From IMG/VR virus record IMGVR_UViG_3300027815_000126, positions 1-27,516 of that record: 27,516 nt of DNA. One strand, written 5' to 3'. Below are positions 208-25,031 of this stretch, in pieces; within the stretch, counting starts at the first letter, position 1, and every line of letters starts with the position of its first letter. The position numbers and the translations under genes are program-made. This stretch comes from a virus (taxonomy: Duplodnaviria; Caudoviricetes). The notes beneath the pieces are model-generated. The model saw nothing but the letters and a program-made list of their open reading frames with translations, was not told where the DNA came from and searched no databases.

Positions 208-232
208 CTTATACTTATATTCTTATACTTAT
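202..232. repeat. CTTATA microrepeat tract next to the REP-like end
   Basis: cttata cttata cttata tt cttata cttat. Confidence 0.85.
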
Positions 233-596
233 CTAAAATATGACGGCTTCTTTTGTCCGCGAAATTGCTCCAATAAGCGTTTTGGGTATTGCCACTCGGG
301 ATCAAGATCAATTGCCCTGAGAAGATTATTTTCTATCGTTTTGTTATAGGCCGGATCTTTGAATTGACTCATCATACCGTATGCTTGGCTGGCTAAGTGT
401 AGAGCCAATACTTTTGGGTCTTGGGACTCATTACCAGATTTTGTTAATAGCTCACCGATACAACTCACTGCCTTTTGGTATTGACCATTTTCAAGACTCC
501 TTTTTCCTTCTTGAAGCAAGTCAACCTCAGTGTTAAGTGCTTGCGCACTAATTACCATCGTAAAAAAGAAAAAAACGATAAAACGGCAGACTTCAT
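229..596 (-). pseudogene. Secreted TPR-like helical protein, apparently frameshifted by 1 nt in a T7-C-T6 tract within the signal peptide
   Basis: ATG at 596 overlaps the upstream stop (ATGA). Adding one T at 569-575 gives MKSAVLSFFFFFTMVISAQA|LNTE..., in frame with the TPR-like body (LLQEGKRSLENGQYQKAV; LLRAIDLDPEWQYPKRLLEQ). Confidence 0.6.
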
Positions 597-1003
597 TGAG
601 TTTTTCCAATTTTTTTGTTAAACAGGTAAAGCAATAAAACGGGTGCATAAAGAATCAGCGCAACGCTAAGAAATTGGCCCATATTATATAAAAAAGAGTG
701 TTCCGGGGAACGATCGGCCGCCGACGTAAAAGCTCCTATTACAAAAATAATGCTCAGTCCTGCATAGAATAAAGCAGCTAACGTTAGTTTCTTTGTCCTG
801 TTTCTCGCTCGTAAAAAGCTGACAGTAAAAATAATGAGGCCGTAGGAAATCAAAAAAATCTCAATAAAAATCCCGCGAGCATTTTTTTCACCCGGTATCG
901 ACGGAACCATATGATATGTCCAGTCGTGAATGATAACACCGAGAAAGATGTAAATCAACGAAATGGCGTATGATGCGTTGAGATATATTTTTTCTCTATT
1001 CAT
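593..1003 (-). CDS. Four-TM membrane protein, candidate immunity protein
   Basis: 136 aa with four hydrophobic segments, AT-rich, starts 2 nt after the toxin-like ORF stop. The immunity role is inferred from position only. Confidence 0.65.
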   Translation of the reverse strand: MNREKIYLNASYAISLIYIFLGVIIHDWTYHMVPSIPGEKNARGIFIEIFLISYGLIIFTVSFLRARNRTKKLTLAALFYAGLSIIFVIGAFTSAADRSPEHSFLYNMGQFLSVALILYAPVLLLYLFNKKIGKTQ

Positions 1004-1005
1004 GA

Positions 1006-3774
1006 CTAATCAGTATAACCTAAAAGTTTAAGTCGTCTATAAACATCGTTTGGAGAGTATTGATGTTGGGCATCCGTTTCCGTCAATTCAAATAAAGGAT
1101 GTCCGCTATCTTTATACAACTCTACAATCAAACTACTACAAATATTTCCCCCAGAAGTCAGCCCAATTAAATTGAAGGTGTTATATGGCATCTCGATGAC
1201 TTCATTAGTCATTGTCCAATTGCCATTTTCGTCCCGATTCCAATAAAAGAAATTACGCTCAATAGCTTGTTTAAGATCTTGGTTGACACCAGCCTCATCT
1301 AAACCGCCAATATTAATATCCGCGCCCTCTGATTGATATTGCGCGATCCAGTCATCAAGCTTGACTATACGAAGGCCTTGCCAAAACATCGGACCCTTTT
1401 CTTCAAAAACCCATTTTTGCCCACCATTATCTTCGTATAGAGTTGCAGTATGATTAATCGGTCCCATTGAAATTGTTTTTATCATAGCTGCTGCTGGAGT
1501 TTTGCCTCTCACAGAAATAACTGTGCCACTTTTTGCAACAGTCCTGAGAACTTCGGCGTTATTATTTAAGTGCTGTGATATTTCAGCATTAGTTCTGAAT
1601 CCAAATCCCTGAAACGCATTTAAAATGCGTTCCGCAGCCTCTGGCGACTTTAATGCCTCGATCCAATTTTCCGGTACTGTTGAATCGTTGGCTTCCCATC
1701 TCAAAGATGTTGTAAATTGACCATTATCGTCAAGGGTCTGACTCATTGAGAAATTATTCAAATTGTTAATGTCTAGCCCCTGCTGATTCATCCATGTCAA
1801 ATCAGTGTCACCCATAAATCGGAATCCATATTGGCCAGATGAGACAACACCGTTTTTAATTGAGAAATTAAAATCACCTTTCATATTTTCTATATCAGCA
1901 TCTCTGTAATTTCCAAACTCATCAAATGTTACCCCAAGCTTCCCTTTGATCGGCTTCACGGTCAAGTCGACCACGTCTTGACCGGATAGAGGATCGACGG
2001 AATAATGAACGTCTTTGATATTCCAGCCGTTTTCGATATAGGTTTTAGACTGAAGTCTTTCATTTTCATCGTAGACCGAAACAGTGCCGTTTTTGAGGCC
2101 CAGGTGCCCTGCTTCGTCTTTACCAAAGGTTCCGCGAAGAATTGTATTCCCCATTTTCACTTCAACAAGATTCTTATAGTCCGCTGTATAGATCTGGTAG
2201 TCCCCATTGGCAAGCAAAACCTTCTTGTATGTGGTTCCATCCTGCTGAACCGTTTGAGGTTTGTTACCCTGAATCTGATCTTGGATAAACGCTCCTACCG
2301 TCTGGAATGACTTGAGGATTGAGCTGATCGAATCTTCTGTTAACACCTGGGTCGCCGAATCCTCAATCGCCTGCGCGAGCCCCTTTTGCTGTACGATATC
2401 TGAAAAATTAATCACTCTTTGAAGATACTGTGTCTGACTCCATGAGTCGGTGCCCGAGACACCAAGTCTTGCTACGTTAAGCGCTGATTGCGAAAAAGCT
2501 CTGAAAATACCATCAAAGATATTGCCACCCAAAACTCCTTCAATTGCTCCCGTTATTGCCCTTGAAGTTAGAGATCCGAGAAGTGGGTCAACACCTTGAG
2601 TGGCATACTCAATACCGAGAGAAGTAGCGCCGCGTATCAAACCATCATTGATTGAATTTATGATCTGCGTGCCTGTGGTTACTCCTTGCCCAAAGATGGT
2701 TCCAATACCCGCGCTGATCGGCGACCCGATGAGGGACGAGAGGCGGGGATCTACGCCGAGTGAGATACCGAGTTTTTGAACTCCAAACTGAGCGAGCGAA
2801 CCAATCAGATCCGGCCTAATTTCGCTGAACGCCAGCTCAAGATTGGATCCGGGATTTGTTATAAGGTGCCCTTGAATCGCTCCGAGAGACAAACCAATGA
2901 TATTGGTGAAACTGGGATCAAGTCCAAGCTCCGTTCCTAAACGCCCCACATTATTAAGAACAACGGCTGATTGAACGGATGCTTGGATATTCTGGGCTTG
3001 GCTAACGGCGACGTGTCCGCCAGCCATCGTTTCAGGTTTAAGACCGCCAATGATTGCTCCTGCGGCCAATGAGCCGAGAAAGTTGGAGATTTGGGGCGAA
3101 ACGCCCAAACTTTCTAGTCCCCGGGAAACCCCAATATTGAGGCCGGTCGAAAGCGCCGTATTGACGATCTGTGCGCCGATGGTCGTGTGCGCCGCGGCCG
3201 CCGCTCCCTGAAGCGCAGGTCCAATGCCCGGCAAGAACCCAATAGCGCTATTAAAAAATCCGACAACCCCACTGTAGACGGTGTTAAGGGCTTGCCCCAT
3301 CGTTCGGAACATATCGCCAACAGGTCCCAAAGTCTTAAGGACCCCGTCAAAAGCCGTTTTAAATGCACCTACGATGCTATTAAAGCCGAGAGTGACGATA
3401 TTGCCTATGGCCGTGACAAAATCCCCTTCTATGGCCGCTACGGCTGTGGAAATGACCGTAAGTATCCATCCGATCTGCTGAAGCCCAGGAATCGGAATCC
3501 AGCTTAAAACCGATCCAATGAGACTTAGGATGCTCCCCCAGAACGCGCCTCTTATCTGCTGGGTTTGGCTAGCTGTAAGTATTTGTGTCTGAGATCCTAC
3601 GCGCGCTTTGGCCGCATTCACTAAGGTAGAATCAGCGGTAACATTCCCCTTCCACGCCTTCATAAAACCGTCTTTTGTGACGGTTAACGTTTCGTCGTGC
3701 TTGTCCGCCCCGATGCCTGGGTCTATATAGGTAATGGTATCTTGAGTTATCCCTGTGATTACAACATAGTGGTA
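1006..3774 (-). CDS. 5'-truncated polymorphic toxin-like protein: C39 peptidase C-half, GG-type cleavage motif, hydrophobic Gly-rich region, C-terminal permuted papain-like (YiiX/YaeF-type) domain
   Basis: The frame is open upstream of ATG 3663 to a TAA at 3775-3777, giving YHYVVITGITQDTITYIDPGIG...VTKDGFMKAWKGNV (C39 H...DP..G...F...W.G pattern). The C-terminus has NHTA (His, 1450-1452), PYN, ICSSLIVELYKDSG (Cys, 1138-1140) and YSPND. Confidence 0.75.
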   Translation of the reverse strand, partial: YHYVVITGITQDTITYIDPGIGADKHDETLTVTKDGFMKAWKGNVTADSTLVNAAKARVGSQTQILTASQTQQIRGAFWGSILSLIGSVLSWIPIPGLQQIGWILTVISTAVAAIEGDFVTAIGNIVTLGFNSIVGAFKTAFDGVLKTLGPVGDMFRTMGQALNTVYSGVVGFFNSAIGFLPGIGPALQGAAAAAHTTIGAQIVNTALSTGLNIGVSRGLESLGVSPQISNFLGSLAAGAIIGGLKPETMAGGHVAVSQAQNIQASVQSAVVLNNVGRLGTELGLDPSFTNIIGLSLGAIQGHLITNPGSNLELAFSEIRPDLIGSLAQFGVQKLGISLGVDPRLSSLIGSPISAGIGTIFGQGVTTGTQIINSINDGLIRGATSLGIEYATQGVDPLLGSLTSRAITGAIEGVLGGNIFDGIFRAFSQSALNVARLGVSGTDSWSQTQYLQRVINFSDIVQQKGLAQAIEDSATQVLTEDSISSILKSFQTVGAFIQDQIQGNKPQTVQQDGTTYKKVLLANGDYQIYTADYKNLVEVKMGNTILRGTFGKDEAGHLGLKNGTVSVYDENERLQSKTYIENGWNIKDVHYSVDPLSGQDVVDLTVKPIKGKLGVTFDEFGNYRDADIENMKGDFNFSIKNGVVSSGQYGFRFMGDTDLTWMNQQGLDINNLNNFSMSQTLDDNGQFTTSLRWEANDSTVPENWIEALKSPEAAERILNAFQGFGFRTNAEISQHLNNNAEVLRTVAKSGTVISVRGKTPAAAMIKTISMGPINHTATLYEDNGGQKWVFEEKGPMFWQGLRIVKLDDWIAQYQSEGADINIGGLDEAGVNQDLKQAIERNFFYWNRDENGNWTMTNEVIEMPYNTFNLIGLTSGGNICSSLIVELYKDSGHPLFELTETDAQHQYSPNDVYRRLKLLGYTD

Positions 3775-3784
3775 TTAATCACAG
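3753..3784. other. Putative tyrosine recombinase core/att site (13-bp arms, 6-bp spacer)
   Basis: Minus strand CTGTGATTAATAC-CACTAT-GTTGTAATCACAG. The arms are inverted repeats at 11/13 positions (outer 9 perfect). It lies 42 bp past the recombinase stop, exactly where the toxin frame is truncated. Confidence 0.7.
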
Positions 3785-3826
3785 AGTAAAGCGATAATGG
3801 TTGCCAGAAACGGCACCGGAAGGGGA

Positions 3827-4720
3827 TTATTCGGCGGCGAGTTCGCGGGGATGGTACTTTTTGACTGCCTTCTTCAAATCCTCGGGATTAAGGCGCGTGT
3901 AAACCGTGGTTGTCGTAATGCGGTCATGCCCAAGAAGCCTTTGAAGATGAACAATCGAGGCCCCTTTTCGAAGCATATGAAGCGCAAAAGCGTGCCTCAA
4001 CGTGTGCGGCGTGCTTGTTCTATTCTCGGGATCCCGGTAGCGATTCATTGTGTAACGAAGCATGTGCTGGCTTATCGGATTGCCCCGATCCGTTAAAAAC
4101 AAATAATGGGTCGGCTTTTTTTGCAAGGTTGGCCGGACTTTGGTCAAATACACTTCAATGGCCTCCCTTGCCTTACGCCCAAACGGCACGATCCGGCCCT
4201 TCCCGCCCTTACCCTCCCGGACAGTCGCAACCCTTTGAGCCAGGTCGACATCCTCGAGCTTCAAATCCCTCAATTCTTGATTGCGCAGACCCGCCGAATA
4301 AAAAAGCTCGAAGATCGCCCTGTCCCTTATTCCATAAGCCGTACACAGACGCGGCTTGCCGAGAAATTCGTCGACTTCCTTTTCGTTCGGCACCACCTTT
4401 GGCAATTTCCCGGGCGTTTTTATTCCTTCAATCGCGGCCGCGGGGTTATAACAAATAAGGAGCTCCCTTTCGAGATAGCGGTAAAAACACCGGATTGTTG
4501 AGAAGCGGTGATAATAAGTATGGTCGCTGATGGTGGGCTTTATTTTTTCAAGATACGCTTCGATATCAACCGGATCCACCTTGAGGATTTCCTTTTTCTG
4601 CTCTTTCAGAAACCGCACAAAAAGATCAAGGTCCTTCCCTATCGTCTTGAGGCTTGTCGGTCTATGACCCCGATTAAACAGATACGTCAAATAATCTTGA
4701 ATTTCTTTGGTCTTTGTCAT
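3827..4720 (-). CDS. XerC/XerD-like tyrosine recombinase
   Basis: RDRAIFELFYSAGLRNQEL, GKGGKGRIVP, HTLRHAFALH, LLGHDRITTTTVYT: complete R-K-H-R-H-Y set. Confidence 0.95.
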   Translation of the reverse strand: MTKTKEIQDYLTYLFNRGHRPTSLKTIGKDLDLFVRFLKEQKKEILKVDPVDIEAYLEKIKPTISDHTYYHRFSTIRCFYRYLERELLICYNPAAAIEGIKTPGKLPKVVPNEKEVDEFLGKPRLCTAYGIRDRAIFELFYSAGLRNQELRDLKLEDVDLAQRVATVREGKGGKGRIVPFGRKAREAIEVYLTKVRPTLQKKPTHYLFLTDRGNPISQHMLRYTMNRYRDPENRTSTPHTLRHAFALHMLRKGASIVHLQRLLGHDRITTTTVYTRLNPEDLKKAVKKYHPRELAAE

Positions 4721-5040
4721 GCGGCGCTCTCCCGCGACGGCGTTTTAATGCTTTTTATGGGCACGGCCGGGTTCTTTGAAATGAGTCCCTCTTTTTCCAA
4801 GTATCTATACAACCCGCGGATCCTTCCAAAGCAATTGTAAAAAGACCAAGCACTTAAAACCGGCTTTCGTTTTTTGAGATACGCCTCGACATCCTCGGTG
4901 TCCGCTTCCAATAAATCCTTTTTTCGTTCCCTTAAAAGAAACTCGGCAAAAAGTCCAAGCTCTTTCCTGTAAGTATCGACGCTCCGCGGCCGAGCGCCGC
5001 CCTTCGATAAAGACTCTAAATAATTCCAGAGCGCCTTCAT
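4717..5040 (-). CDS. Stand-alone integrase N-terminal core-binding (SAM-like) domain, no catalytic domain
   Basis: Aligns by eye over its whole length with the N-terminal ~100 aa of 3827-4720 (EAYL.K.KP..S, IR..YRYLE.E.LI..NPA..I..IKTP). ATGA overlaps at both ends. Confidence 0.85.
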   Translation of the reverse strand: MKALWNYLESLSKGGARPRSVDTYRKELGLFAEFLLRERKKDLLEADTEDVEAYLKKRKPVLSAWSFYNCFGRIRGLYRYLEKEGLISKNPAVPIKSIKTPSRESAA

Positions 5041-6241: not shown

Positions 6242-6745
6242 CTATAAACTAGCTTTTATTTGGCCGACGATCTTTTTCGTGTCGGTGCTTTGTTTTGATT
6301 TAAGCGCATCGTGAAGCACTTGGGAATCAACTGCGCGGGCTTCCTTGATCGCGGCCACGGTCTGCTTCATGGCATTTTTATATTGAGCGTATTTTTTAAA
6401 TAGAAATCCGATTGTCGCGCCCGGCGCTATGATCAGCGCTAGAACGATCAAAGCAAAAATCCAGAAACTTAAACCGCCGATAAAATTCCCGATCCTTTCA
6501 ATGAAGCCGACCTTTTTCGGTGTCGTATCAAGCCCGACCGATAGCCTCTTTTCGGTACGCTGGACGACAACCGCGCTGTCGCCGGTAGTCTTTATTACCG
6601 TGGGCTCGGTCACAACCTCTTCGTTCCAATTGTAAACCGTTCGGGGCTTCTCGGGCGCAGTGAGCGACGGAAACCTCGGTGTCACTGAAGCGCATCCGGC
6701 TAAAAGAAAAACCCAAGCACTAAATAGTAGATATCGCATTTTCAT
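6242..6745 (-). CDS. Lipoprotein with downstream TM helix, unimolecular-spanin-like topology
   Basis: Start reassigned to 6745 (AAAGGAG RBS). MKMRYLLFSAWVFLLAGC lipobox, then ~75 polar aa, then TM FWIFALIVLALIIAPGATIGFLF and a basic tail. Confidence 0.55.
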   Translation of the reverse strand: MKMRYLLFSAWVFLLAGCASVTPRFPSLTAPEKPRTVYNWNEEVVTEPTVIKTTGDSAVVVQRTEKRLSVGLDTTPKKVGFIERIGNFIGGLSFWIFALIVLALIIAPGATIGFLFKKYAQYKNAMKQTVAAIKEARAVDSQVLHDALKSKQSTDTKKIVGQIKASL

Positions 6746-6902
6746 GAGCCCGTCTCCTTTCGCCTTTGTTTGGGGTGAAATTCTTGTTGGGCGATTTTTG
6801 ATAAACCTCAATCTTTGCAACCGGGCAATGATTGACCGGCTTTAAAGCCGCACAACCGCACAAACTAAATAAACAAAGACCTGCAATGATCCATTTTTTC
6901 AT
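6720..6902 (-). CDS. Small lipoprotein (lysis-region, o-spanin-like?)
   Basis: MKKWIIAGLCLFSLCGC signal/lipobox. ATGA overlap with the upstream gene. Confidence 0.55.
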   Translation of the reverse strand: MKKWIIAGLCLFSLCGCAALKPVNHCPVAKIEVYQKSPNKNFTPNKGERRRAHENAISTI

Positions 6903-7231
6903 GTCATGCTCCTCCCTAACAGTTTGTCGAGCTTTTCATTTGTGGTTTCAAGCTTCTGGTCAATTTTGGCGATGTCTTTTGACAAGCCCTTAAAAGTCTC
7001 CTCAAGCCTTGTGATTCGTTCAATGTTTGAAACCTGCGCGGCATCGACCGTATTCAGCCTTGTCGTAATTCCTGTCACCCAAAAGAAAGCTCCTGTAACT
7101 AAAACGCCCGTCACTGTCGCAAGAAGCCACCATAAAATTTTGATGGATTCCCCGTTGCTTTGTTTTTTTCGATTTAAAGTTGCGTCTGAATCCGCTGTAC
7201 AGTCCTTCATTTCATGCCTCTTGGGTAACAA
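6899..7231 (-). CDS. Single-TM plus coiled-coil protein (holin/XhlA-like)
   Basis: TM ILWWLLATVTGVLVTGAFFWV, then heptads ITRLEETFKGLSKDIAKIDQKLE. Position after tail genes. Exact start uncertain. Confidence 0.55.
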   Translation of the reverse strand: MLPKRHEMKDCTADSDATLNRKKQSNGESIKILWWLLATVTGVLVTGAFFWVTGITTRLNTVDAAQVSNIERITRLEETFKGLSKDIAKIDQKLETTNEKLDKLLGRSMT

Positions 7232-7406
7232 TTTCTAAAATGATCTGGTTTACTTCATCGAGCTCCTTTTCGAGTACGCCCTTTCGTACTTTTAAAGCAG
7301 CAATGTCCACTCTCTGCGTGACCGTTGATTCGCGGGTGTAAACGATCACCTCCCTCGTCCTTCCGTCAACCTCGGCGGTAAATGTTTCTCCTGTCGGCTT
7401 AAGCAT
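7212..7406 (-). CDS. Small phage hypothetical protein
   Basis: 64 aa, AAGGGGG RBS, fills the operon gap, C-terminal coiled coil. Confidence 0.6.
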   Translation of the reverse strand: MLKPTGETFTAEVDGRTREVIVYTRESTVTQRVDIAALKVRKGVLEKELDEVNQIILEIVTQEA

Positions 7407-7418
7407 AAAACCCCCCTT

Positions 7419-8030
7419 TTATAATTCTTTAAGCTGCATGAGGTTTGAAACCTTATGCGTCAAAAAGGTTGTCATAATGTATTTATCCTCCGACGCCGGC
7501 ATAGTGCCGCGATGAAGATGCGTCCAAGACGCCGGAAAAAGAACCATCCGGCCTTTGACCGGCTTAATGGAAAGCTTCTGATAAAAGAATTCAGTCTCGC
7601 CACCTTCTTCAACCGTATTCAAATAGATGAGGCATGAAAAAAGGCGGTTGATCGTCGCGTCGTTGCCGGCATCAATATGCCAATCGTAAAAGCCCTGTCC
7701 CTTTTCGTACCGTGTTAAAAAATACCCTGTGTCGTATATTGAGAAGGCCTTGAGTACGCCGAACTGCTCCACATATCTTTGGAATGCGAGATTCACAAGA
7801 CCAAAAAGCGATCTATCGATCTCCGAATCCTTGCCAGCTTCTTTACTGAAATCCAAGTCCGCCGATATTTTTACTTTTTTATTAACAACATGAGCGCCGT
7901 CTTGATCGACAACACGGCCTGCAACAACGCCGGGCGAGCCCTCAAAACCAGCCGTGATTTGATCGCATAAATTGTGAGGAATTGCGCCGTCTTCGATGCA
8001 GATAAAACTATTTTCTTTGATCTCATGCAT
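7419..8030 (-). CDS. 2OG-Fe(II) oxygenase (prolyl-hydroxylase-like)
   Basis: WHID (HxD), LIYLNTVEEGGETEF, KGRMVLFP, HLHRG, KYIMT. Confidence 0.92.
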   Translation of the reverse strand: MHEIKENSFICIEDGAIPHNLCDQITAGFEGSPGVVAGRVVDQDGAHVVNKKVKISADLDFSKEAGKDSEIDRSLFGLVNLAFQRYVEQFGVLKAFSIYDTGYFLTRYEKGQGFYDWHIDAGNDATINRLFSCLIYLNTVEEGGETEFFYQKLSIKPVKGRMVLFPASWTHLHRGTMPASEDKYIMTTFLTHKVSNLMQLKEL

Positions 8031-8032
8031 GG

Positions 8033-8980
8033 CTACACCTTGATCGCAACGGCCACCGCTTCAAACGGCGGAATGAATGTGTGTTTATGCGGTGAAAATG
8101 AACACGATAACGGAGGATTTGATCCCGCCGGTTGAAACGCGCCTGAGTTATCATTTCCGGTTAAAGGCGGCTGGTTGGTATCGCCTCCAACTTTTAGAAG
8201 CGCCCCTGTTAAATTCGTTTTTGCGGCGCCCGAATCGTCTTGTTTGGCCCCCACCGGAAACTTGTCGCGTGAATCGGGCACGTTGAAAGTCGTACTGCCG
8301 TCGCCGGTCCCGTAGGTTGTTCCGATTTCGGCAAAAAGCTCGGGAAAGCGCGTTCTTGAAATCGCCGCGCCGTCGCAATGCTTCCATCCTTCCGGCAGGC
8401 TTGCGATGGTGCCGTACCACTCCATCCGCTCTCCGGGCTTCCTGCGCTCTCTGAAATTCTTGACTGACCATTTATCGATATCCGAAGAACCGTTATTTTG
8501 AAAAGAGGCGAGGACCGCGAAAGTCGTTATGCCGGTGGGCGCGGTACTACTTAAGCTAAATTTTCCTGTGATGGTGGTATTCGACGCATCGGCGGCCGCT
8601 ATCACAAAGTATCGGGTGTTGGCCGCCTCGCCGCCGGTGTCGAGATCCGCAAAAGTAAGCGTAATATCTGCCGTTAGTTTTCGCGGAACACGGATAGAAC
8701 CGCTTGCGTTGGTACACCAGATAATACCGGCCTTGATCTTAAGCGACGTGGCGCTGACCCATTCGACCCTTGCTTCATTTGCCGGATCCGCGAGATACCG
8801 AAGATACTCCAAAAGATCAATTGAGCCGCTTTGCGGTTTTCCTGATGCGCCGACAAAGGTTTCAATTGCGTCAACCGGTACGTAAGCATCGTTAACGTCA
8901 TCTGCCTGAATAATGTCGACGCCGTCTTGGAGTGCTGTTTTATTGTCGACGCCTTGCGGATAAGTGGTTGACCCTGCCAT
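8033..8980 (-). CDS. Tail fibre protein with tail collar domain
   Basis: PEGWKHCDGAAISRTRFPELFAEIGTTYGTGDGSTTFNVPD is the collar signature. Confidence 0.9.
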   Translation of the reverse strand: MAGSTTYPQGVDNKTALQDGVDIIQADDVNDAYVPVDAIETFVGASGKPQSGSIDLLEYLRYLADPANEARVEWVSATSLKIKAGIIWCTNASGSIRVPRKLTADITLTFADLDTGGEAANTRYFVIAAADASNTTITGKFSLSSTAPTGITTFAVLASFQNNGSSDIDKWSVKNFRERRKPGERMEWYGTIASLPEGWKHCDGAAISRTRFPELFAEIGTTYGTGDGSTTFNVPDSRDKFPVGAKQDDSGAAKTNLTGALLKVGGDTNQPPLTGNDNSGAFQPAGSNPPLSCSFSPHKHTFIPPFEAVAVAIKV

Positions 8981-10270
8981 TTAAAGACTCCGAAGCCTTA
9001 GTGCGTTTTGTTCAAGTTCAAGCTTTCGTAATGCGGCCGATGCTCTGGAATAACCGATGGACGTGCCGAACTGCACTTCCGCATGAACCCGCCCGTCCTC
9101 AGGACTCATCTGATATTGCACGCGGTCGACTTGATGCTTTGCGACACCGCCGTAGAGCTGGCCGGATCCTCCGTTTAAAACAGAGCCGTAATACTTATTT
9201 GATCCGCCTGCGGCGGTCGTGCCGTAAACGGCACCTGTCTGATTATTCTCTGAATCGACAATGGAAGCTGCGCCAATCGGTAAAGACGTTTCAAATCGTT
9301 TCGTTGTATTCTTCAAACTGATAGAAAGTTGCCGCGCCGGAATGCCTCTTTGACGAAGAATGCTTGTGATGAACTGGCTTGCGACGTTTGAAGTGTAGAT
9401 CGAGCCGTTGGAAATAATTTCCTCGTGCTTGCCGTAGCGGTTGATGCTCGACTGCGACTGCCCTGTCGCTTGGAAAACAACGCCCGGGCTTGCCTCGCCG
9501 CCTTCAAAGTAAATCTTGTTCACGATGTTTTTAAAATCGACCCTGTCGGTGATCTTCACTACTTTGTCGCCGAGATAAAAGACGTGCTTTAAAATCGGGT
9601 CTTGGTTGTACCAGAAAAACTGCAAGTTCTCGTTGATGCCGTATTCGACCGTCCCGAGCAAATCAAAAAGCGTTCTTATTGCTTCCTTCGCGGTCGTTTT
9701 GAAAGAAATCGAATCCGGCGAAAAGTTGCCCGATTGAATAGTGCCGCGGGTGATCCCGGAGTTTCCGACGATGAAGTTGTCGACGATGTTTTGAACAACG
9801 GCGCTCACTTCCTGATTTGTATAAACTTTGCTTGCCCCCGAGTCATGAACAATGATCCGGTCAAGCCAGCCGAAGTAGCCGGTGCATTCTATCGTGATGG
9901 ATCCTGAGTTTCCCGTCTGAATGATTGGCGACACGGCTTCCACGTATCCGCGGTACCAAAGGAGGGCCCCCGATCCCGCTTTCGGAAGATAAATTCTTAC
10001 GTCATCATCGGGGTTAACCTGGAAACCTTTGTAATTCCCGTCAACTTTAATGGTCGCCCGGCCGCACCCGCCGATACGGTTCCACTCCCACGAAAGAGCG
10101 GTGACGTGAGATTCAATGCGTCTTTTAAGCTGAAAATTCTTGTCGCGTATCTCAATGGCATACCTTGACGGAGAAATGGTGACTACCGGCGTCCCGGAAG
10201 AATAATTCCCGATTATGCCGTGATCGGGCGTAACAACGACGCTTGATGGAGATACAATCCGTGCGGTCAT
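8981..10270 (-). CDS. Tail tip/baseplate hub protein (Tal-like)
   Basis: 429 aa in the tail-tip position with hub-like motifs (LSWEWNRIGGCGRATI, DDVRIY, YRGYV, IVNKIYFEGG, SINRYG). Confidence 0.7.
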   Translation of the reverse strand: MTARIVSPSSVVVTPDHGIIGNYSSGTPVVTISPSRYAIEIRDKNFQLKRRIESHVTALSWEWNRIGGCGRATIKVDGNYKGFQVNPDDDVRIYLPKAGSGALLWYRGYVEAVSPIIQTGNSGSITIECTGYFGWLDRIIVHDSGASKVYTNQEVSAVVQNIVDNFIVGNSGITRGTIQSGNFSPDSISFKTTAKEAIRTLFDLLGTVEYGINENLQFFWYNQDPILKHVFYLGDKVVKITDRVDFKNIVNKIYFEGGEASPGVVFQATGQSQSSINRYGKHEEIISNGSIYTSNVASQFITSILRQRGIPARQLSISLKNTTKRFETSLPIGAASIVDSENNQTGAVYGTTAAGGSNKYYGSVLNGGSGQLYGGVAKHQVDRVQYQMSPEDGRVHAEVQFGTSIGYSRASAALRKLELEQNALRLRSL

Positions 10271-10867
10271 TTAGGAGGCCACCGTTCTTATTTTGTGTTC
10301 CCAGTTTCTGGCGACGCTGGTTTTCGTGAAACGAAGAATGATCTCATCGCCGTTTAAATCAGACGCCGCAAGATCAATCTTGTACCAGCCGTTTCCAACT
10401 TCGGAAGCGCTATTAGCGCAAGCCGCAAACGCTCCCGCATCTATAGAACGCTGGCACGTAATGCCCGTAAGCCCCGTTTCGGCTGTCTTGCCGTCGGTAT
10501 CGTCAACCATGAGAAACATATAGTTCGCGTGGGCAATATTTTTCTTATACGCGATATCCACAATATCGCCGGGCTCTTTGGGGTACATGGTCAAAACGGT
10601 CGTTTTCGCACCGCTGGTCGTCGTTTTCACGATAACGACAACGCCATCGGCGTTCATTTCGGAGGCGGTTAGATCGAGATAATAAATTCCCTGCCCTATG
10701 TCAGTTGCTTCGTTCGTGCAGTCGGCCAAGGCCCCGCCGTCTTTTGAAACTTCTGAATCGAGCCCCGCGGCACTGGCCACCGGGTCCCCGTCGGCGTCAT
10801 AGATTGCAAAATATGCTCTGTAAGCTTGGTTTTTTATCGGAATCGGTTTAGCGTCGGTGGCGGCCAT
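10271..10867 (-). CDS. Virion structural protein with two tandem ~95-aa beta domains
   Basis: Internal duplication: DGGALADCTNEATDIGQGIYYLDLTASEMNAD vs DAGAFAACANSASEVGNGWYKIDLAASDLNGD. Confidence 0.7.
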   Translation of the reverse strand: MAATDAKPIPIKNQAYRAYFAIYDADGDPVASAAGLDSEVSKDGGALADCTNEATDIGQGIYYLDLTASEMNADGVVVIVKTTTSGAKTTVLTMYPKEPGDIVDIAYKKNIAHANYMFLMVDDTDGKTAETGLTGITCQRSIDAGAFAACANSASEVGNGWYKIDLAASDLNGDEIILRFTKTSVARNWEHKIRTVAS

Positions 10868-10876
10868 GGTTTCTCC

Positions 10877-12133
10877 CTATCTTGTTACTTCATTAAAAAA
10901 CTTTGTGCGCTGGTGCGGTGTGTTGTCATGGCGCACGCGCGAGGGCTGTCCGGCGGCGCCGATGGCAAAGAAGTTGTATTCTCTCCCCGTTGCGTCGGCG
11001 GTTGTCTGGTTTAAAGTAAATCCGTCGCCGTCCATCGAAACGACATCCACATCCGCATTAACGGTCGGCGGCAGTGAGGCGCCTGCGGTGATGTGCTGCA
11101 AACAGCGGTTTGACGCTTGTTTCTTATGCGCCTGCATATTTGCTTGGTTGTCGCGTGAATCATTCGCCGTCGCAAAGCGCTCGGAAGAACTCACTCCAAC
11201 ACCGATGCAAAAATTCCCCTGCGCAGTAATCACACCGCTTGGAGCCTTCGATTGAGATAAAAAGAGAATCGCTTGCGGCGAAAAACCCAAGCCCGTCTTG
11301 GAAAAGTTCCCCGTTGAAGTCGGCTCGACGTCTAAGGCGGCGTAACAGCGAACGTTTGCGCCGCCGATAGCCACGTATCCCCAGCGCGTGGCTGTTGCCG
11401 CTGAATTCGTTGACCAGTTGAGTGTAAAACCGTCCGAGTCAAGCGAGGTGAGACTTGCCTCTTTTGTAACGGTGAACTGATGGCGTCTGCAGATGGAGCT
11501 TGCGACCTGCGAGCCTTCGGTGTCAGAGGTGATCGCCGCATCGTCGCAAGAAATGGCATTTACCGTATTCCGGCCGGAGGAGCCGAACCCGATGGTATAA
11601 ACAAGATCCCCGACATAACCTTCGGCTGTATTAATAGTGCCGTTCGCCACAATGAGTCCAACCGGCGCAAAACCCACGCCCGTAATCGCCTGAGAGCCGG
11701 TTGTGGTGAGCGAATCAAATATCCCCACTTCGACGTCCACGTCATCGCCCGCGATTGCGAGAAAATAAACCACGCGCGAAGCAGCCGGAGCAGTCGTCCA
11801 ATTAATCGTGAAGCCGTCCGAATCCATCGAAACAAAATCCGCTTCCATGAGCGTCGTGTCTGTGGGTTGCGCGGAGACGATACACTTATTACTCCGAAAC
11901 CCCTTGCAAGTGTTGGCCGTGGCCAAGGTGTCATCGTCGTGCGCGGAGGCGCACCATCTTTTCGTTGAACTTTTTGCCGCGCCAAAAAAGGGGTTAAGAT
12001 CAGACTGCCCGCTGTCTTCGGCGGTAGCAGCGGCGCTGAAGAATAGAATAAGCTTCGGCAGGAAACCGAGGCCTGTAACGGCTTGGTTTCCTGTCGCGGT
12101 ATTCGTTGTAAAACTACCGGCCTTGACGTTCAT
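10877..12133 (-). CDS. Putative virion adhesin/structural protein with three ~130-aa repeats
   Basis: Three copies of TG[LV]GFxP...S[ML]DxDGFT[IL]N...[FY]xAI. Confidence 0.7.
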   Translation of the reverse strand: MNVKAGSFTTNTATGNQAVTGLGFLPKLILFFSAAATAEDSGQSDLNPFFGAAKSSTKRWCASAHDDDTLATANTCKGFRSNKCIVSAQPTDTTLMEADFVSMDSDGFTINWTTAPAASRVVYFLAIAGDDVDVEVGIFDSLTTTGSQAITGVGFAPVGLIVANGTINTAEGYVGDLVYTIGFGSSGRNTVNAISCDDAAITSDTEGSQVASSICRRHQFTVTKEASLTSLDSDGFTLNWSTNSAATATRWGYVAIGGANVRCYAALDVEPTSTGNFSKTGLGFSPQAILFLSQSKAPSGVITAQGNFCIGVGVSSSERFATANDSRDNQANMQAHKKQASNRCLQHITAGASLPPTVNADVDVVSMDGDGFTLNQTTADATGREYNFFAIGAAGQPSRVRHDNTPHQRTKFFNEVTR

Positions 12134-12463
12134 TTATCCGATGTAGTCCTTTAGCTTTTGAAGAACGTCCGCAAGCTTGTCGTCGCCGCGGTCATTGAGA
12201 ATAGTTACGGTTTCATCAAGGGCTTGGCTAAGTTCTCTTTTTTTCTTTCTTCCGGGGTTTTGAATATCCGCGTACAGTTCAACTTCCTCCGGCGTCGCCC
12301 CGACGATTGTTTGGTTATCCGCCAGAAGCTTCGGATTCTCCACATTCAAAAAAACCTTAAAGCCAGCCGGAACGATTTCCTCGGTCGGCAATATCAGCGG
12401 ATCCTCGTCTGTCGTGACCGCCCGTATGATTCTTGTCGTTTTATCGATGATGATCTTGTCCAC
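12134..12463 (-). CDS. Phage hypothetical protein (tail region)
   Basis: 109 aa, GTG start with AAGGAGG RBS, abuts the next gene. Confidence 0.7.
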   Translation of the reverse strand: MDKIIIDKTTRIIRAVTTDEDPLILPTEEIVPAGFKVFLNVENPKLLADNQTIVGATPEEVELYADIQNPGRKKKRELSQALDETVTILNDRGDDKLADVLQKLKDYIG

Positions 12464-12481
12464 TATCCGCCTCCTTTTCGA

Positions 12482-13246
12482 TCAGTAATATGCCGCTCTA
12501 AATTCGATCTCGATCCTTGTACTTCCCGTGCCTGTAAAAACAAGCGTGTTATCTCCGGGATTGAGCGTCAAAAAATCCCCTTCGAAGTTTTTGATATCAT
12601 CGACCCCGTCATTTGTGACGGAAAGATCCTCCGAATCCATTCGATTATTGATTACAAGATTTTTCCCCATTAAAACCGTTGCCCGGTACTGCATGGTTTC
12701 CCCCGTCGTCTGGTTTTCAAGCCTGCAGTTGTCGATGATGTTGCCTGAGGCGTTGGAAATCCGAACCCTGACCCTCGATGGGGCGTTTCCCGGGTTATTG
12801 ACGACAAAAGGGGTTGTGCTTATTGCCGGGTTCTCGTCATGAGTCGTGACGCTTGAGCCGTACCAAAAGGGGTCGGACGCCACCAGATCCACCGAAAAAT
12901 CTGCGAACGTCCGAAGCGTCTTATATGAATACGCGAAATTCCGGTACTGGACTTTAAGGATTCGATCATCATCCAGCGTCAAATTCTGTTCGGATGAGCC
13001 CTCAAACGCGCCTTTTAAATCATCGAGTTTCGATCTTAGGTTGTCGTAGTTTGAGCCGGTGATTGTCCCGCGGATTCTAACGTTTAATGTTTTCCGTTTC
13101 CCGATAGGCACAACCGATCCGTGAAACTTCGGAAGATCAAATTCTTGAATGCTTTTGGCAACACTGATATTCATATCTTCGACCGCAACGTTGTTGTTGC
13201 TGTCGAGATCAAGCGTCCCAATATTTATGTCGATTTCATCAGCCAT
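12482..13246 (-). CDS. Distal tail protein (Dit)
   Basis: Directly after the TMP. ASDPFWY, NNPGNAP, GDFLTLNPGDNTL, C-terminal FRAAYY are typical siphophage Dit motifs. Confidence 0.85.
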   Translation of the reverse strand: MADEIDINIGTLDLDSNNNVAVEDMNISVAKSIQEFDLPKFHGSVVPIGKRKTLNVRIRGTITGSNYDNLRSKLDDLKGAFEGSSEQNLTLDDDRILKVQYRNFAYSYKTLRTFADFSVDLVASDPFWYGSSVTTHDENPAISTTPFVVNNPGNAPSRVRVRISNASGNIIDNCRLENQTTGETMQYRATVLMGKNLVINNRMDSEDLSVTNDGVDDIKNFEGDFLTLNPGDNTLVFTGTGSTRIEIEFRAAYY

Positions 13247-15063
13247 TAAAGTCTTTCCCTTTCAACGTCGATAAACTGCGACAGCCGGGGCCCGATATTC
13301 CTTACAACTTGATCCGCCAGATTGTCAGGAGTAAAAACAGGATTATTGATCACGATCTGGATGTGATAGACATTCCCGCCTGAACTTTGATTTGGAGAAA
13401 CCATAGCGCCGCGAGGTAGATTCAGTAGTTCAGGTCCCCGCTCACCCACAAGAACGGCTCCCGTGCGCGTGACGGTGCCTCCACCGGCAAGACCCGGAAT
13501 ATTGGGAAGCTCGAGTTCTTTATTTTTTGATTCGTTCAGCGCCTTTTCGGCGGCATTAATCTGGCTAAAAGCGTTAGCCGCGCTCACAATGACGGCGGCA
13601 AGCTCGATGGCGGCGGTGATTCGCGCAAGCGGGTTCACGGCTGCTTTGATCGCTATAATCGCTTTTGCAGCGGCAACGCTGGCATTTAAAACCACCGATA
13701 TCCCTTTTAGGGCGCTTGATCCTGTTGCAATCGAAAGCTCTTGGCTTAAATTGGCCACAGCCGATGCCAGCTGAAACTGAAGTTTAAATTTTTGAAGCTC
13801 GGCCTTTAAAACCGCTTCTTGTGTTTTTTGGTGGTTTTCAAGCTCCGCTTCGCTGATCGCTTTTTTGTATTGAAGTAACTTTGCTTGCGTGGCTTTATCA
13901 AGATCCGCGGCTTTTAAAAATGCATCGATTTTCTTTTGTTCTTTTTCGAGATAAGCTTGTGTTTCCTGCTCTTTAATAAGTTTTGCGGTCTCGGAACCTG
14001 AAATTAGCTGATTTAACTTTGAATCATTAAATAGCCGGTCGATCTCATCCATCCGCTGATTATGAAGAACCTGATCGGCTTCTAACTGGGCATTGACTTG
14101 GGCGTGTAAATCGGTAAGGCCTCTTAAGAAATTTTCTTCCGAAGAAGGCCTCGCTTGATTATTTTGAGCTTCCCCGCCCGAGGCAATGGCTGAAGCATTC
14201 TGCTGCTGTAAAAACCGGGCGATATCGGGATTCTGTTTATTCGCCTCCATAAACTTTTTCGAGCGATCACCCTCGGATTCTGCGTTGATCTTCTTAAGAC
14301 TCTCGGCAAGATCGAGCGCTCCTTTTGTCATGCCGGCCATAGCCGCCTGAACACCCGGCGACTTAATAACGAAATTCCCGAGCTCCGCTAAAACCTCATG
14401 GATGGCGTTCCCCAGCTGCGCCTGTGCGCCCGAGAAGTTTTTTACATCCTCGGTCGCGGCCGAGCCAAAGCGCGTGGAAAGAATTTCTAAGAGCTGGTCG
14501 TACTGCTCGGATTTTGTTTTATTTTCGTCAAGCTCGATGCCCCATTTCTTTAAAGCCGTAAGATTGCCTTCGGCGGCCTTTGCCATAATGAGGGCTGCTT
14601 GCGGAAGATCCCGGCCCGTTACCGTCGCAAGATTAAGCGTTGCCCGCGTAATCTTATCCATCTGACTCGGGCCCACGTTGCCGAGATTTATAAGGGTTGT
14701 GATTGTCTCTTCTAGGGCGCTTTTACTAAACCGCGTCGACCGGGAAAGACTATCTGCTAAGTCCTCATACTTTTTCGATAAGGCATCGGTCGTGAAACCT
14801 TGATTTTGAAGCGCCATCGTAAGCCTGTGAAAGGCTTCCTCATCTTTTTGGGCTTCAACGACGGCACTTTTCATGAGCTCAATGACAGGCCCGATGGCTT
14901 TTTCCACGATAAAAAGCTGGGAAGCAAACCCCGCCCAGCCCAGATTCATCGAATCGGTGGAGCTTTTTGAATTATCGCCAATTTGTTTTAGAGCGCCGTT
15001 AAGTTTCCCCAAGGCGTCTTTATCGTCCAAGAGAAGCTTTATGCTTAGCGTTGTGTCGCTCAT
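13246..15063 (-). CDS. Tail tape measure protein
   Basis: 605 aa, Ala-rich helical, C-terminal LAGGGTV...VGERGPELL motif, follows the chaperones. Confidence 0.9.
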   Translation of the reverse strand: MSDTTLSIKLLLDDKDALGKLNGALKQIGDNSKSSTDSMNLGWAGFASQLFIVEKAIGPVIELMKSAVVEAQKDEEAFHRLTMALQNQGFTTDALSKKYEDLADSLSRSTRFSKSALEETITTLINLGNVGPSQMDKITRATLNLATVTGRDLPQAALIMAKAAEGNLTALKKWGIELDENKTKSEQYDQLLEILSTRFGSAATEDVKNFSGAQAQLGNAIHEVLAELGNFVIKSPGVQAAMAGMTKGALDLAESLKKINAESEGDRSKKFMEANKQNPDIARFLQQQNASAIASGGEAQNNQARPSSEENFLRGLTDLHAQVNAQLEADQVLHNQRMDEIDRLFNDSKLNQLISGSETAKLIKEQETQAYLEKEQKKIDAFLKAADLDKATQAKLLQYKKAISEAELENHQKTQEAVLKAELQKFKLQFQLASAVANLSQELSIATGSSALKGISVVLNASVAAAKAIIAIKAAVNPLARITAAIELAAVIVSAANAFSQINAAEKALNESKNKELELPNIPGLAGGGTVTRTGAVLVGERGPELLNLPRGAMVSPNQSSGGNVYHIQIVINNPVFTPDNLADQVVRNIGPRLSQFIDVERERL

Positions 15064-15395
15064 GACTTTATTTCCCGTTTAAGTTTTTCCGCGAACAAAT
15101 AATCCATGTAATTACAAATCTCAACAATCCGGTTTGGCTGATCGAGATATCCGCCCGGATACGGCAAAAAACCTTTTTCACGCCAATTGTGAAGCTCATA
15201 GGCGAATTTGATGAGTCCGCCTTCTTTTAGATAAAAACCCGGACACCGATCAATCACGATGCCGTCAAACTTGAAGCAAGCACTTTCCGGCTTTGGTCTG
15301 TCACAGCCCATGATTTCCCGGACCGCCGGTGCGGCCGTCTCGCATTCGTGGGATTTAACGAGCTCCGACTGCAAGACAGCGATGATTAGTTTTTT
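15060..15395 (-). CDS. Tail assembly chaperone GT extension (via -1 frameshift)
   Basis: The -1 frame is open from the slippery site (KLIIAVLQSELV...LPYPGGYLDQPN) and overlaps the TMP start (ATGA). Confidence 0.8.
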   Translation of the reverse strand, partial: KKLIIAVLQSELVKSHECETAAPAVREIMGCDRPKPESACFKFDGIVIDRCPGFYLKEGGLIKFAYELHNWREKGFLPYPGGYLDQPNRIVEICNYMDYLFAEKLKREIKS

Positions 15396-15805
15396 AGGTC
15401 TTGCCCTGTCATGGTGTTCAAGGCAATCACTTCACTCGCCAAAATATAGGTAATGTGAAGACGCTCATAAGCGTCCAATGTCTCCTCGGACACGAGGCCT
15501 TTTTCGTCAGAAACAAAAGGAACGCCTGACCCGTCCTTTTTCGTGATGCCGGTATGCCCCGTGACGCTCTGCTTGATGAAATCTCTAAAAACCTCATGAA
15601 GCTTTTCGTTCACCTCTTCGTACTTTTGGGGATCCTGCGCTTTCAAACTCTCGAAGCTTTCCTTCGTGACTTTGTTACTCATCTCCCTCAAAAAAGAGAG
15701 CCTTGAAATGAGACTGCGATACGTTTTCGCGGGCAACGCCCTCACGCTGAATACCGCGTCTTTCACCTTCACTTCGTGCTTGTCCGTCAAATCGGGAATG
15801 ATCAT
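15386..15805 (-). CDS. Tail assembly chaperone G
   Basis: Lies between tail tube and TMP and ends in the slippery heptamer. Confidence 0.8.
   Translation of the reverse strand: MIIPDLTDKHEVKVKDAVFSVRALPAKTYRSLISRLSFLREMSNKVTKESFESLKAQDPQKYEEVNEKLHEVFRDFIKQSVTGHTGITKKDGSGVPFVSDEKGLVSEETLDAYERLHITYILASEVIALNTMTGQDLKN
15389..15395 (-). promoter_or_regulatory. -1 ribosomal frameshift slippery heptamer A AAA AAC
   Basis: CTA AAA AAC TAA at the end of chaperone G. Confidence 0.85.
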
Positions 15806-15842
15806 TTTTACCCTTTCTTTTTCGGTTAAAGTTACTTAGAAA

Positions 15843-16769
15843 TCATGTAAAAACAATCGCATACTCATCATCCGCAGCCGAACGCGCCATCTGAAACGGC
15901 AGCTTATGAACAAGGATGCCGTCTGACGCGTCATAAGGAATGTTATTCAGGCGGCATTGATTTGCAGTGATCGTGCAGATATTCCCGGCACTTGCTCCGA
16001 TAGCAAGGCTTAAAACCTGCACGGTATCGGCTTCAAACTTCGTGTACCAGTTTTTCGTGCCAAGCGTTGTCGCCTCAACCGTGATCTCGCCTTCGGGATT
16101 TCGGTCAACGACGTCAAAACCGCGGATCCCGTGAGTCGCCGTCAAATCCCCGCGCTCGGTGATCTTGTTGCCCTGTTTCAACATGAGCTCACGAATAATC
16201 GCGGCGTATGCGTCCATCGTCGCCGTGAGATTCTTTAGAACCACGGGCACCGTCGAATCGTACGTTGGGCTTGCCGGAAGCGCTTGATCTGTAGGCGTGG
16301 CATAGAGGCACTTTATTTTGAATTTGAGCTTTGCAACTTCACCGGCAACACCCGAAAATTCCATATCGCCCACACAGCCCATGAGAATATGGCGCACCCC
16401 GTCCATGAAAAGATAGATCGTGCAGGACTGGAGCGACCCCGAACGCGGCGCGTAGGTGACGCTGACACCGGCGCTCACGGTTTCGGTGTGATCGCACGCT
16501 TTCAAAAGATCCCCGACCCCGCGAGGGGCGGTGCCGGCAGCACCCGAGCCTTTAAGTTCCACATAAAACGAAAGCTCGTATTTTCTTTTGCCCCCCAAAC
16601 TCTTTAATTTGGATTTACTGACTGCAAAGTCGTCTCGCTCCAACGTTTCGTGCTGGGGATCCAGCTTTACGTCAAATGCCTGGATGGCATTTGCCGCACC
16701 CGTCGGCACCGAATCCGTGCCGTAGGTTCCTTCGACCTTCGCGTACATAACTCCAAGTGCTGATCTCAT
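15843..16769 (-). CDS. Major tail tube protein
   Basis: 308 aa, AKVEGTYGTD start, ELKGSGAAGTAP, SCTIY, position in the tail operon. Confidence 0.85.
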   Translation of the reverse strand: MRSALGVMYAKVEGTYGTDSVPTGAANAIQAFDVKLDPQHETLERDDFAVSKSKLKSLGGKRKYELSFYVELKGSGAAGTAPRGVGDLLKACDHTETVSAGVSVTYAPRSGSLQSCTIYLFMDGVRHILMGCVGDMEFSGVAGEVAKLKFKIKCLYATPTDQALPASPTYDSTVPVVLKNLTATMDAYAAIIRELMLKQGNKITERGDLTATHGIRGFDVVDRNPEGEITVEATTLGTKNWYTKFEADTVQVLSLAIGASAGNICTITANQCRLNNIPYDASDGILVHKLPFQMARSAADDEYAIVFT

Positions 16770-16784
16770 TTTGATCTCCCTTTT

Positions 16785-17249
16785 TTACATAACCGTTTTC
16801 GGATTTATTTGAGCGTGGCGGTATTTGACTTCAACCGTTATCACGAGCCCCACTTCCCCCTGGCCTTCAATCGTGTCGAACGGCTCGACCGCCGTGATTG
16901 ACGTATCGATGGCGTTTCCCCCGCGCGTGATGTCCTCTTTTAATTTCTTTTTGATGTCCCCTAAGAGACTGTTTAAAACGGTATCCGGCGCGTTTGGAGA
17001 TCCTTCGTCGATGCGCGTCCAAAGAGTGAGAAAAACTTTCAGACTGCATGTCGTAAGCGGATAGGCGTTGTCTGATCCGTCTTCAGGACCGGAATTGACG
17101 ATAATTGTCGGAACAGATGCCAAAGTGTTGCCGTTTACATCCCACTGCTGGACGCTTGCGATGTTGTTGTCAAAGCCGTTGGCAACTGAAATAAGAGAAA
17201 GTGCCGATTTTATGTTTTGGAAAATATTTTCACGGACGGTATTCGGCAT
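16785..17249 (-). CDS. Tail terminator (gpU-like)
   Basis: 154 aa acidic, RENI, DITRGG.A, position before the tube gene. Confidence 0.7.
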   Translation of the reverse strand: MPNTVRENIFQNIKSALSLISVANGFDNNIASVQQWDVNGNTLASVPTIIVNSGPEDGSDNAYPLTTCSLKVFLTLWTRIDEGSPNAPDTVLNSLLGDIKKKLKEDITRGGNAIDTSITAVEPFDTIEGQGEVGLVITVEVKYRHAQINPKTVM

Positions 17250-19680: not shown

Positions 19681-19693
19681 TTATTCGGTTCCT

Positions 19694-20023: not shown

Positions 20024-20035
20024 ATTTTCTCCTCA

Positions 20036-20086
20036 AAGAAACGTACTTGTTGGCGCAGTCTTGGTAAAACCGCGCCAGCAAGTACG
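20036..20086 (-). terminator. Hairpin/intrinsic terminator after the major capsid gene
   Basis: CGTACTTGCTGGCGC (20086-20072) pairs with GCGCCAACAAGTACG (20056-20042) with one mismatch, followed by TTTCTTT. Confidence 0.65.
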
Positions 20087-20105
20087 CTTTCTTAAGATTC
20101 GCCGA

Positions 20106-21065: not shown

Positions 21066-21097
21066 TTAAATTTCCTCCCCTTTTCGTTGTTGTGGTT

Positions 21098-21781: not shown

Positions 21782-21811
21782 TTGATTTCTCCTCCTTTTG
21801 AAAGATTTCGG

Positions 21812-25013: not shown

Positions 25014-25031
25014 CACTTCCTCCAAAAGGTT

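Follow-up and report, generated by a model that had tools for sequence, protein, structure and literature searches.

Headless giant-gene tails behind a phage recombinase pair: a probable attachment site on a His-Tyr codon pair and the possible exchange of predicted toxin tips by prophages

The window analysed here, i.e., the whole stretch of 27,516 nucleotides in the IMG/VR virus record IMGVR_UViG_3300027815_000126 (Caudoviricetes), contains a short inverted repeat at which a phage meets a fragment of a giant gene. Along the minus strand, the phage morphogenesis genes are followed by an operon with two tyrosine recombinases and a small core-binding protein between them, then by the repeat, and then by the headless 3′ part of a giant protein gene (the tail) with two small genes after it (Table 1). 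The repeat (minus strand, 3753-3784) reads as described in a first-pass annotation, with two 13-base arms that pair at 11 of 13 positions around a 6-base spacer, CACTAT (3771-3766), made of the His-Tyr codons of a C39-like domain. The pairing stops at 13 bases and there is no symmetry beyond that. The reading frame across the site is L-C-D-stop-Y-H-Y-V-V-I-T-G. The stop, a TAA at 3777-3775, had been taken to truncate the gene; it lies instead upstream of the headless part, which integration itself would have separated from the rest.

By itself the repeat is at chance level: one repeat with at least 11 of 13 paired positions and a 6-base spacer was observed, versus a mean of 0.75 expected per window in 20 Markov simulations. 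Its position exceeds chance, because the spacer coincides with the first two codons of homology to the giant proteins and lies 55 bases after the recombinase stop. In the same register, intact host-gene sites (n = 19) pair at only 3-7 of 13 positions (mean 4.6). The site was absent among the 25 pairs shown by a repeat finder, and viral contigs scanned with its exact patterns gave no match.

The parent family of the window tail is made up of proteins of 3,000-4,500 amino acids (aa). In the intact homologues a motif of the type A-H-I-N-G-N directly precedes the His, and this motif is missing from the window. No intact gene with the exact window tail was found among the longer proteins, the best match in this search, capped at 8,000 candidates, reaching 70%. 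According to the source labels, one homologue, the only one of ten with an organism name, comes from Candidatus Omnitrophota and the genome referred to below as G001 from Planctomycetia; the host is likely, though not certainly, a member of the Omnitrophota.

Evidence that the repeat is a recombination site comes from the recurrence of the junction. The first-pass annotation had placed a tyrosine-recombinase core on the His-Tyr codons, as a conserved landing site in the C39-like domain, and had proposed looking downstream of related recombinases for the point at which homology breaks. In all three independent elements with readable downstream DNA, two phages (the window and L007/L008, which are one phage in two assemblies) and one primase element (G001), the break falls at the same His codon. 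The site lies 63 bases after the recombinase stop in L007/L008 and 42 in G001, and in the three elements a headless tail and then small genes follow the junction. L007/L008 and G001 are close relatives by their proximal recombinase; in a fourth element (L001/L009/L086) the sequence stops inside the recombinase. Comparison of the junctions also supports the suggestion that the frame is kept on exchange. A search with the C39-half alignment matched seven viral stretches but gave no loci, and one with the distal recombinase gave none either.

Comparison of the two ends of G001 shows where the sequence switches. At the left junction the host G-N codons are followed by CACTAT, at the right one the element arm is followed by CATTTT, and in L007 the base preceding the spacer is of the element type. 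Therefore, the switch takes place within about two bases of the 5′ edge of the spacer, and the two spacers differ. This would fit a 6-base stagger resolved by replication, as in the GInts (PMC5385486), or a single exchange at that edge. A short motif common to the three element ends, GGCAAYCA, about 30 bases upstream of the spacer, is a possible accessory binding site. In both phages the upstream motif (window 3791-3805, minus strand) looks as if the G-N-H-Y/F codons were repeated there in degenerate form, 28 bases ahead of the spacer.

The coding arm is conserved at synonymous positions in part of the comparisons. The first 29 bases of the window tail are identical in the inner tail of G001 (see below), and G228 is identical over 41 bases and then continues into a different tip. 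Over 36 intact sites, the first 30 bases match at 29-30 positions in two, at 25 in one and at 12-21 in 33. The first ten codons are identical at 9/10 in G001 and 10/10 in G228, versus 42 and 46% elsewhere (P = 0.003 and 0.0004, controlled for amino-acid change). The expected reduction in synonymous variation was thus found in these two of ten comparisons and was missing from the remaining eight; G403, with the same peptide, has 5 of 10 codons in common with the window. The giant gene of G228 that bears the conserved arm is split by an in-frame TAG (G228:C60 9233-9235), 53 codons past His-Tyr.

In a sister family of elements with tandem recombinases, most of which also have a primase, the site at the end has the same 13-6-13 layout. 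It lies in the giant genes already described, further downstream than His-Tyr by about 340 codons, and its spacer is the codon pair Ser-Tyr. Among nine tandem-recombinase contigs fetched, five end in a headless tail at this site and one in an RHS fragment; G240:C33 and G148:C161 provide further cases. The left arm at this site often holds an in-frame stop and inverts the coding-arm consensus (eight element-side versus 19 intact junctions, P = 0.015). A related recombinase-primase element (G541:C254, L208, 1-600) is followed by a PIN-like pair and a headless RHS fragment, with no clean 13-6-13 at the RHS-adjacent junction; the element class may also target RHS toxins. One genome bin, G240, contains six different tails (contigs C6, C8, C14, C16, C33 and C35), two of them behind recombinase pairs.

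Two elements have both ends on one contig, that of G001 (42 kb) and a 47-kb prophage in G325, and in both the far end is an intact giant gene, the tail and immunity-like genes of which lie inside the element, with a different headless tail after the recombinases. In G001:C1 the intact gene codes for 2,942 aa, with His-Tyr at 458746, and the other tail, of 1,071 codons, is found at 500404. The tail of the intact gene is followed by two small genes, an excisionase-like HTH_17 gene, a hydrolase-like gene, a methyltransferase, a kinase, regulator genes, defence cargo, a primase and the recombinase trio. This inner tail corresponds to that of the window (70.8% DNA identity over 2,795 bases from the site onward), and the best inverted match of the window left arm in the G001 giant gene is exactly at His-Tyr (1 of 8,797 positions). 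A search of the 39 kb between the ends with five 5′ halves gave no remnant of a second 5′ half. Fifteen genomes were screened for an intact giant gene with recombinases after it, and G325 was the one that had them. The order in G325:C6 is an intact 3,148-aa gene, small immunity-like genes, oxidoreductases, a kinase, a regulator, a full prophage, a primase, the recombinases and a headless 706-aa tail with a small gene; the junction is at codon 2491 by protein alignment. The arm of the intact gene pairs at 9 of 13 positions with the arm at the right end of the element, versus 7 of 13 for the displaced tail (nine of 9,415 positions reach 9). An order-level search around G240 provided no further complete element.

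From these comparisons of sequence, the pair of recombinases encoded by the element very likely uses the repeat as its attachment site, and the exchange of tips is probably the function of the element family, in which integration at a fixed codon would replace the predicted toxin tip of a giant gene. The swap would follow from a feature that the first-pass annotation had missed, the in-frame gene tail that related elements have of their own at the opposite end. Each 13-base arm would bind one recombinase, the core-binding-only protein would act as an accessory, and strands would be exchanged at the edges of the 6-base spacer, with no need for spacer identity. Upon integration, the 5′ part of the host gene would be joined to the tail and immunity genes of the element, and the old tail would stay behind the recombinases without a head but with an intact immunity gene; excision would bring the old tip back. 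In this proposal the window most likely shows the right-hand junction (attR), from a population in which uninterrupted genes are present as well, with its tail family placed at the leading end of the G001 element. What has been observed directly is the layout of the locus, the return of the junction in independent elements, the conservation of the coding arm at synonymous positions, and a pair of elements for which a single contig spans both ends.

Several observations weigh against tip exchange. The window's assembly consists of this one contig and the far end of its phage is not on it, so a spare tail of the phage's own is unseen, as is the far end in the whole phage family because the related records G608-G610 reach neither junction. 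A protein-level sliding congruence test (18 homologues) gave no sharp dip at His-Tyr, the dips being located about 150 residues before it and 290 after it. The conserved arm is present in G228, yet a matching recombinase was not found in that incomplete genome. In G001 the element's own left arm pairs with the inner-tail arm at only 7 of 13 positions and is not top-ranked in its gene, and neither GC nor GC at third codon positions (GC3) separates inner from displaced tails, i.e., the inner tails are not marked as foreign. The same module of lipid enzyme, kinase and regulator genes follows tails inside and outside elements, three of the nine tandem-recombinase contigs are without a tail, and just two complete elements were found. 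Each of the two could also have arisen by insertion into an additional giant gene that subsequently lost its 5′ half.

Table 1. Features of the window and of related loci (window positions unless a contig is given).
Feature	Position	Strand	Basis
Second small cassette gene, true start probably later	229..648	-	46% identical to G001 counterpart
136-aa membrane protein, candidate immunity gene	593..1003	-	45% identical to gene after same tip in G001
Headless 3′ part (921 codons) of giant protein gene: C-terminal half of C39-like domain, helical spacer region, variable tip	1006..3771	-	Homology
Tip region, permuted papain-like (YiiX/C92-like) domain, conserved His then Cys; predicted toxin	1006..1857	-	Profile and structure matches
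Stretch conserved at synonymous positions	3731..3771	-	41 bases identical to G228, 29 to G001
Coding arm, V-V-I-T codons	3753..3765	-	Best inverted match to window left arm among 8,797 G001 giant-gene positions
6-base spacer, His-Tyr codons; strand exchange inferred at or near 5′ edge	3766..3771	-	G001 left and right ends and L007 junction comparison; run X1 graph branch and loose ends
Putative element-side arm of recombination core, non-coding, with in-frame TAA, inverted copy of coding arm	3772..3784	-	Similar arms at same place in L007 and G001
Short motif GGCAAYCA	3798..3805	-	Common to 3/3 element ends
Site-proximal tyrosine recombinase, 297 aa, catalytic residues present	3827..4720	-	Domain match, alignment
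107-aa protein with only core-binding (SAM-like) domain, 4-base overlap with both neighbours	4717..5040	-	Counterparts in L001, L007, G001
Site-distal tyrosine recombinase, 348 aa	5037..6083	-	Domain match, tree
Phage morphogenesis genes (tail, tape measure, S49 protease, portal, terminase), element side	6242..27516	-	Domain matches
Second tandem-recombinase family, mostly with primase; Ser-Tyr (or Thr-Tyr, Ala-Ser) 13-6-13	G209:C103, G105:C47, G173:C67, G502:C109, G240:C6, G240:C33, G148:C161, G325:C6 (L207, L176, L211, L213, L215, L249, L261, L277-L278)		
Lipid-enzyme/kinase/regulator module	G001:C1 463343-467789; G325:C6 27092-33606, 73121-78724; G173:C67; G228:C60; G049:C26; G342:C64		

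The window could also be the attachment site of a free phage (attP) that carries the tail as its own cassette, a doubtful alternative that differs from the proposed tip exchange only in the junction seen. It would explain the near symmetry of the arms (11/13, versus 7 and 5 at the right junctions of L007 and G001), the match of the tail and both small genes to the cassette at the leading end of the G001 element, and the classification of the record as a virus. In the assembly graph of sequencing run X1, the phage-side contig starts at 3744, which places a branch at 3773/3774, and the loose ends at 3771 and 3773 continue into the upstream motif missing from the window. Tiny contigs contain 30-38 bases of the coding arm without mismatch at a depth of 66-74, versus 10-18 for the locus, and the longer loose-end contigs are mostly other genes, with 4-6 mismatches. 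Contig depth, a weak measure, was about 18 for the tail and 10.5 for the phage side, with a single phage-side junction. Runs X1 and X2 gave nearly identical tables and may be one data set, possibly the one from which the window came, and runs X3 and X4 had next to none of the window's words. From a free phage with its own cassette, lysogens should give a second junction between the recombinases and another tail, at equal depth, and neither was seen in X1. In addition, a transposase gene starts after the cassette, as it does after the host tails of L007, L008 and G342. Because of the higher depth of the tail, the single phage-side junction and this transposase start, we consider it quite probable that the window is the attR of a prophage present in part of the population. 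Its tail may have been delivered earlier by a related element.

An ordinary disruptive insertion is unlikely. The repeat would then be a true attachment core, the phage would carry no tail of its own, excision alone would restore the gene, and G001 and G325 would each show a second giant gene minus its 5′ half. The depth values and single junction just mentioned, within the limits of that measure, fit a host tail split in part of the population, and genomes do contain several giant-gene copies with similar neighbours. However, this explanation requires a clean loss of 6-10 kb without remnant in both complete cases, and leaves unexplained the better inverted pairing of the arm of the intact upstream gene and the 29-41 bases identical across genomes.

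That a chance palindrome happens to lie at a junction produced by illegitimate or homologous recombination is very unlikely. The expected number of such repeats is compatible with it and the C39-like domain resembles a broad mosaic zone, and against it stand the same codon in all three elements, the same geometry at the sister-family motif and element arms that invert the coding-arm consensus.

The recombinases themselves set the system apart from host Xer. In the proximal enzyme R146, K171, H239, R242, H265 and Y274 are invariant in 15 of 15 aligned homologues, and by inspection the distal one has the same catalytic motifs. Their scores (233 and 238 bits, versus a XerD cut-off of 330) fall about 100 bits short of the XerC/XerD cut-offs. 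A tree of 64 recombinases grouped the element pairs together (SH-aLRT 99; distal and proximal branches 97 each) apart from the presumed host XerC/XerD; it was a quick tree with SH-aLRT support only and one spurious long row, and the host labels are an assumption from near-universal single hits. The first-pass annotation had hinted at Xer/dif identity from the geometry of the site and at a loose likeness to the XerD arm, neither of which was supported. The stretch said to be XerD-like overlaps the spacer, and in the register of that annotation the arm matches the XerD arm of four dif-like sites of the host lineage at 1-2 of 11 positions (minus strand) or 3-4 of 11 (plus strand); the best match in any register is 12/22, reached by 158 of about 55,000 window 28-mers; and a canonical dif-like site was found on another G001 contig and in relatives. 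An IMEX-type integration by host XerC/XerD at a dif-like site is thus extremely unlikely, in spite of inverted arms around 6 bases as in dif (PMC5357621) and the Xer-like architecture of both recombinases, because the match to dif of the host lineage is not above chance, dif is located elsewhere, and the phage has recombinases of its own outside the host Xer groups.

The site had also been interpreted as targeting a catalytic-residue codon, which the comparisons do not support. The His does align with the catalytic His and Asp-Pro region of PDB 7n87, although weakly (E 0.1), and Pfam C39 was above cut-off in the five intact proteins scanned (5/5). The other half of a peptidase was not found: the cysteine half of the C39 profile was unmatched, with alignment only from profile position 45-73 on; the Cys-Gly nucleophile motif was missing in 55 of 56 giant homologues; and no Cys was present within 700 aa upstream in 7 of 12. 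We take the nucleophile of C39 to be an N-terminal cysteine. Structure modelling of the region from its single sequence gave no useful information (mean pLDDT 41). We regard the domain as a likely pseudo-peptidase, and the Ser-Tyr target of the sister family lies outside any peptidase domain. It is more apt to describe the target as a conserved pair of codons that precedes a variable tip; among the giant-protein homologues the tails vary widely and small genes come next.

The tip of the window had profile matches to PDB 3kw0 (E 3e-7) and YiiX (E 0.0035), with which Atlas structure hits agree. Variable tips with small genes that vary with them are the hallmark of polymorphic toxins (PMC3482391). 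Here we found a conserved body, a variable C-terminal domain and a small gene directly downstream, which co-varies with the tip in the pairs window/G001 and L007/G342. On these grounds we lean towards a function of the window tip as an antibacterial toxin. An IS200-like (Y1_Tnp) transposase gene lies directly after tail-plus-immunity cassettes in the window (1-70, minus strand), L007 (14686-15627), L008 (14437-15348) and G342:C64 (3491-4519); the window begins with this gene and a 60-base duplication at its end.

The elements carry other genes besides. In G001:C1 (474891-488703) SNF2 helicase, methyltransferase, helicase, MrfA-zinc and PLD genes are found in a row inside the element, a cargo that from its Pfam pattern we presume to be a DISARM-like defence. 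In G001:C3 (386441-399165), frames of about 600-1,000 aa that resemble the tails by homology occur three in a row; with leader-like N-terminal starts of their own, 93% shared DNA and small genes after each, they form a second type of cassette array. After the recombinase pair of G325:C6 there is a 635-aa protein with two degenerate recombinase domains (67844-69751), which, taken with the core-binding-only gene of the window, points to accessory subunits of more than one kind. Variable enzymes for lipids or small molecules, a seven-transmembrane (7TM) histidine kinase and a response regulator form a recurrent module, found next to tails as well as within elements (Table 1), possibly a variable signal system that travels with the tips. 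Among the tail genes of the window there is a 2OG-Fe(II) oxygenase gene (7419-8030), also present in the related phages L001 and G608.

Phage-borne polymorphic toxins are known from the MuF toxins (cited in PMC13366799) and from mycobacterial prophage toxin cassettes. Like the elements here they link a prophage to conflict genes, but they are complete genes and are not known to complete a gene of the host. The closest parallels on the integration side are the GInts and temperate phages that integrate in coding genes, with a tyrosine recombinase operon at one end of the element, a site-specific target in a conserved gene, chimeric attL/attR and a 6-base stagger that tolerates non-identical cores (PMC5385486). 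On the toxin side, Rhs and CDI systems share the conserved trafficking body, the variable C-terminal tip, the adjacent immunity gene and headless orphan tips that can be joined (PMC3967940, PMC3482391). However, their exchange has been proposed to take place by homologous recombination over about 500 bases after duplication (522 bases in Salmonella Rhs; PMC3967940), whereas here the two tips are separated by a prophage or primase element, and a dedicated pair of recombinases and a symmetric core of 32 bases are present. Xer/dif and IMEX also use two related simple tyrosine recombinases and inverted arms around 6 bases, in a 28-base site with two 11-base arms (PMC5357621); here the arms have 13 bases without dif sequence, the recombinases belong to the element and the target is inside a coding gene. 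RIT elements have three adjacent recombinase-family genes as well, with overlaps of 4-8 bases versus 4 bases twice here (PMC3414803, PMC8138268), but the middle gene here has no catalytic domain and the 2.3-kb module ends a phage or primase element, unlike the 3.5-kb stand-alone RIT unit. The rAID and polyimmunity loci link a tyrosine recombinase to conflict genes too, only immunity genes in the case of rAID (PMC12247911, PMC3482391). Finally, large proteins with C39-family matches and with mobile-DNA genes or recombinases in the flanks have been described in Omnitrophota (bioRxiv 10.1101/2023.11.21.568195, 10.64898/2026.06.07.730766). These preprints propose proteolytic processing, whereas the family studied here, of 3,000-4,500 aa, is without the C39 cysteine; the portions available to us contain neither an attachment site nor tip exchange, and those of a third Omnitrophota giant-gene preprint no such case.

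Polymorphic toxins are usually held to gain new tips from orphan cassettes by homologous recombination. The insertion of elements into coding genes and the exchange of orphan tips are known separately, and we found no report of their combination, i.e., recombinase-driven tip exchange by prophages, in the literature searched, which left out most subscription titles and whose supplements could hold relevant loci. If true, tip exchange would here follow a site-specific route with short, defined parts (the 32-base core, two recombinases and an accessory protein), and a common annotation, the tandem “XerC/XerD-like” genes, would be explained. A pair of recombinases able to exchange DNA within a coding sequence despite mismatched spacers may also serve as a tool. 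In its broadest form, for which we see the chances as evenly balanced, widespread Omnitrophota-like prophages and primase elements would be toxin-tip exchangers that carry a tail, immunity genes and the lipid-enzyme, kinase and regulator module, with the recombinase pair plugging the cassette in frame. Lysogeny would then reprogram the weapon of the cell, and possibly also its kin signal, without loss of the old immunity, and excision would reverse the switch. This would link lysogeny to toxin switching in an uncultured phylum and provide a role for a class of its giant genes.

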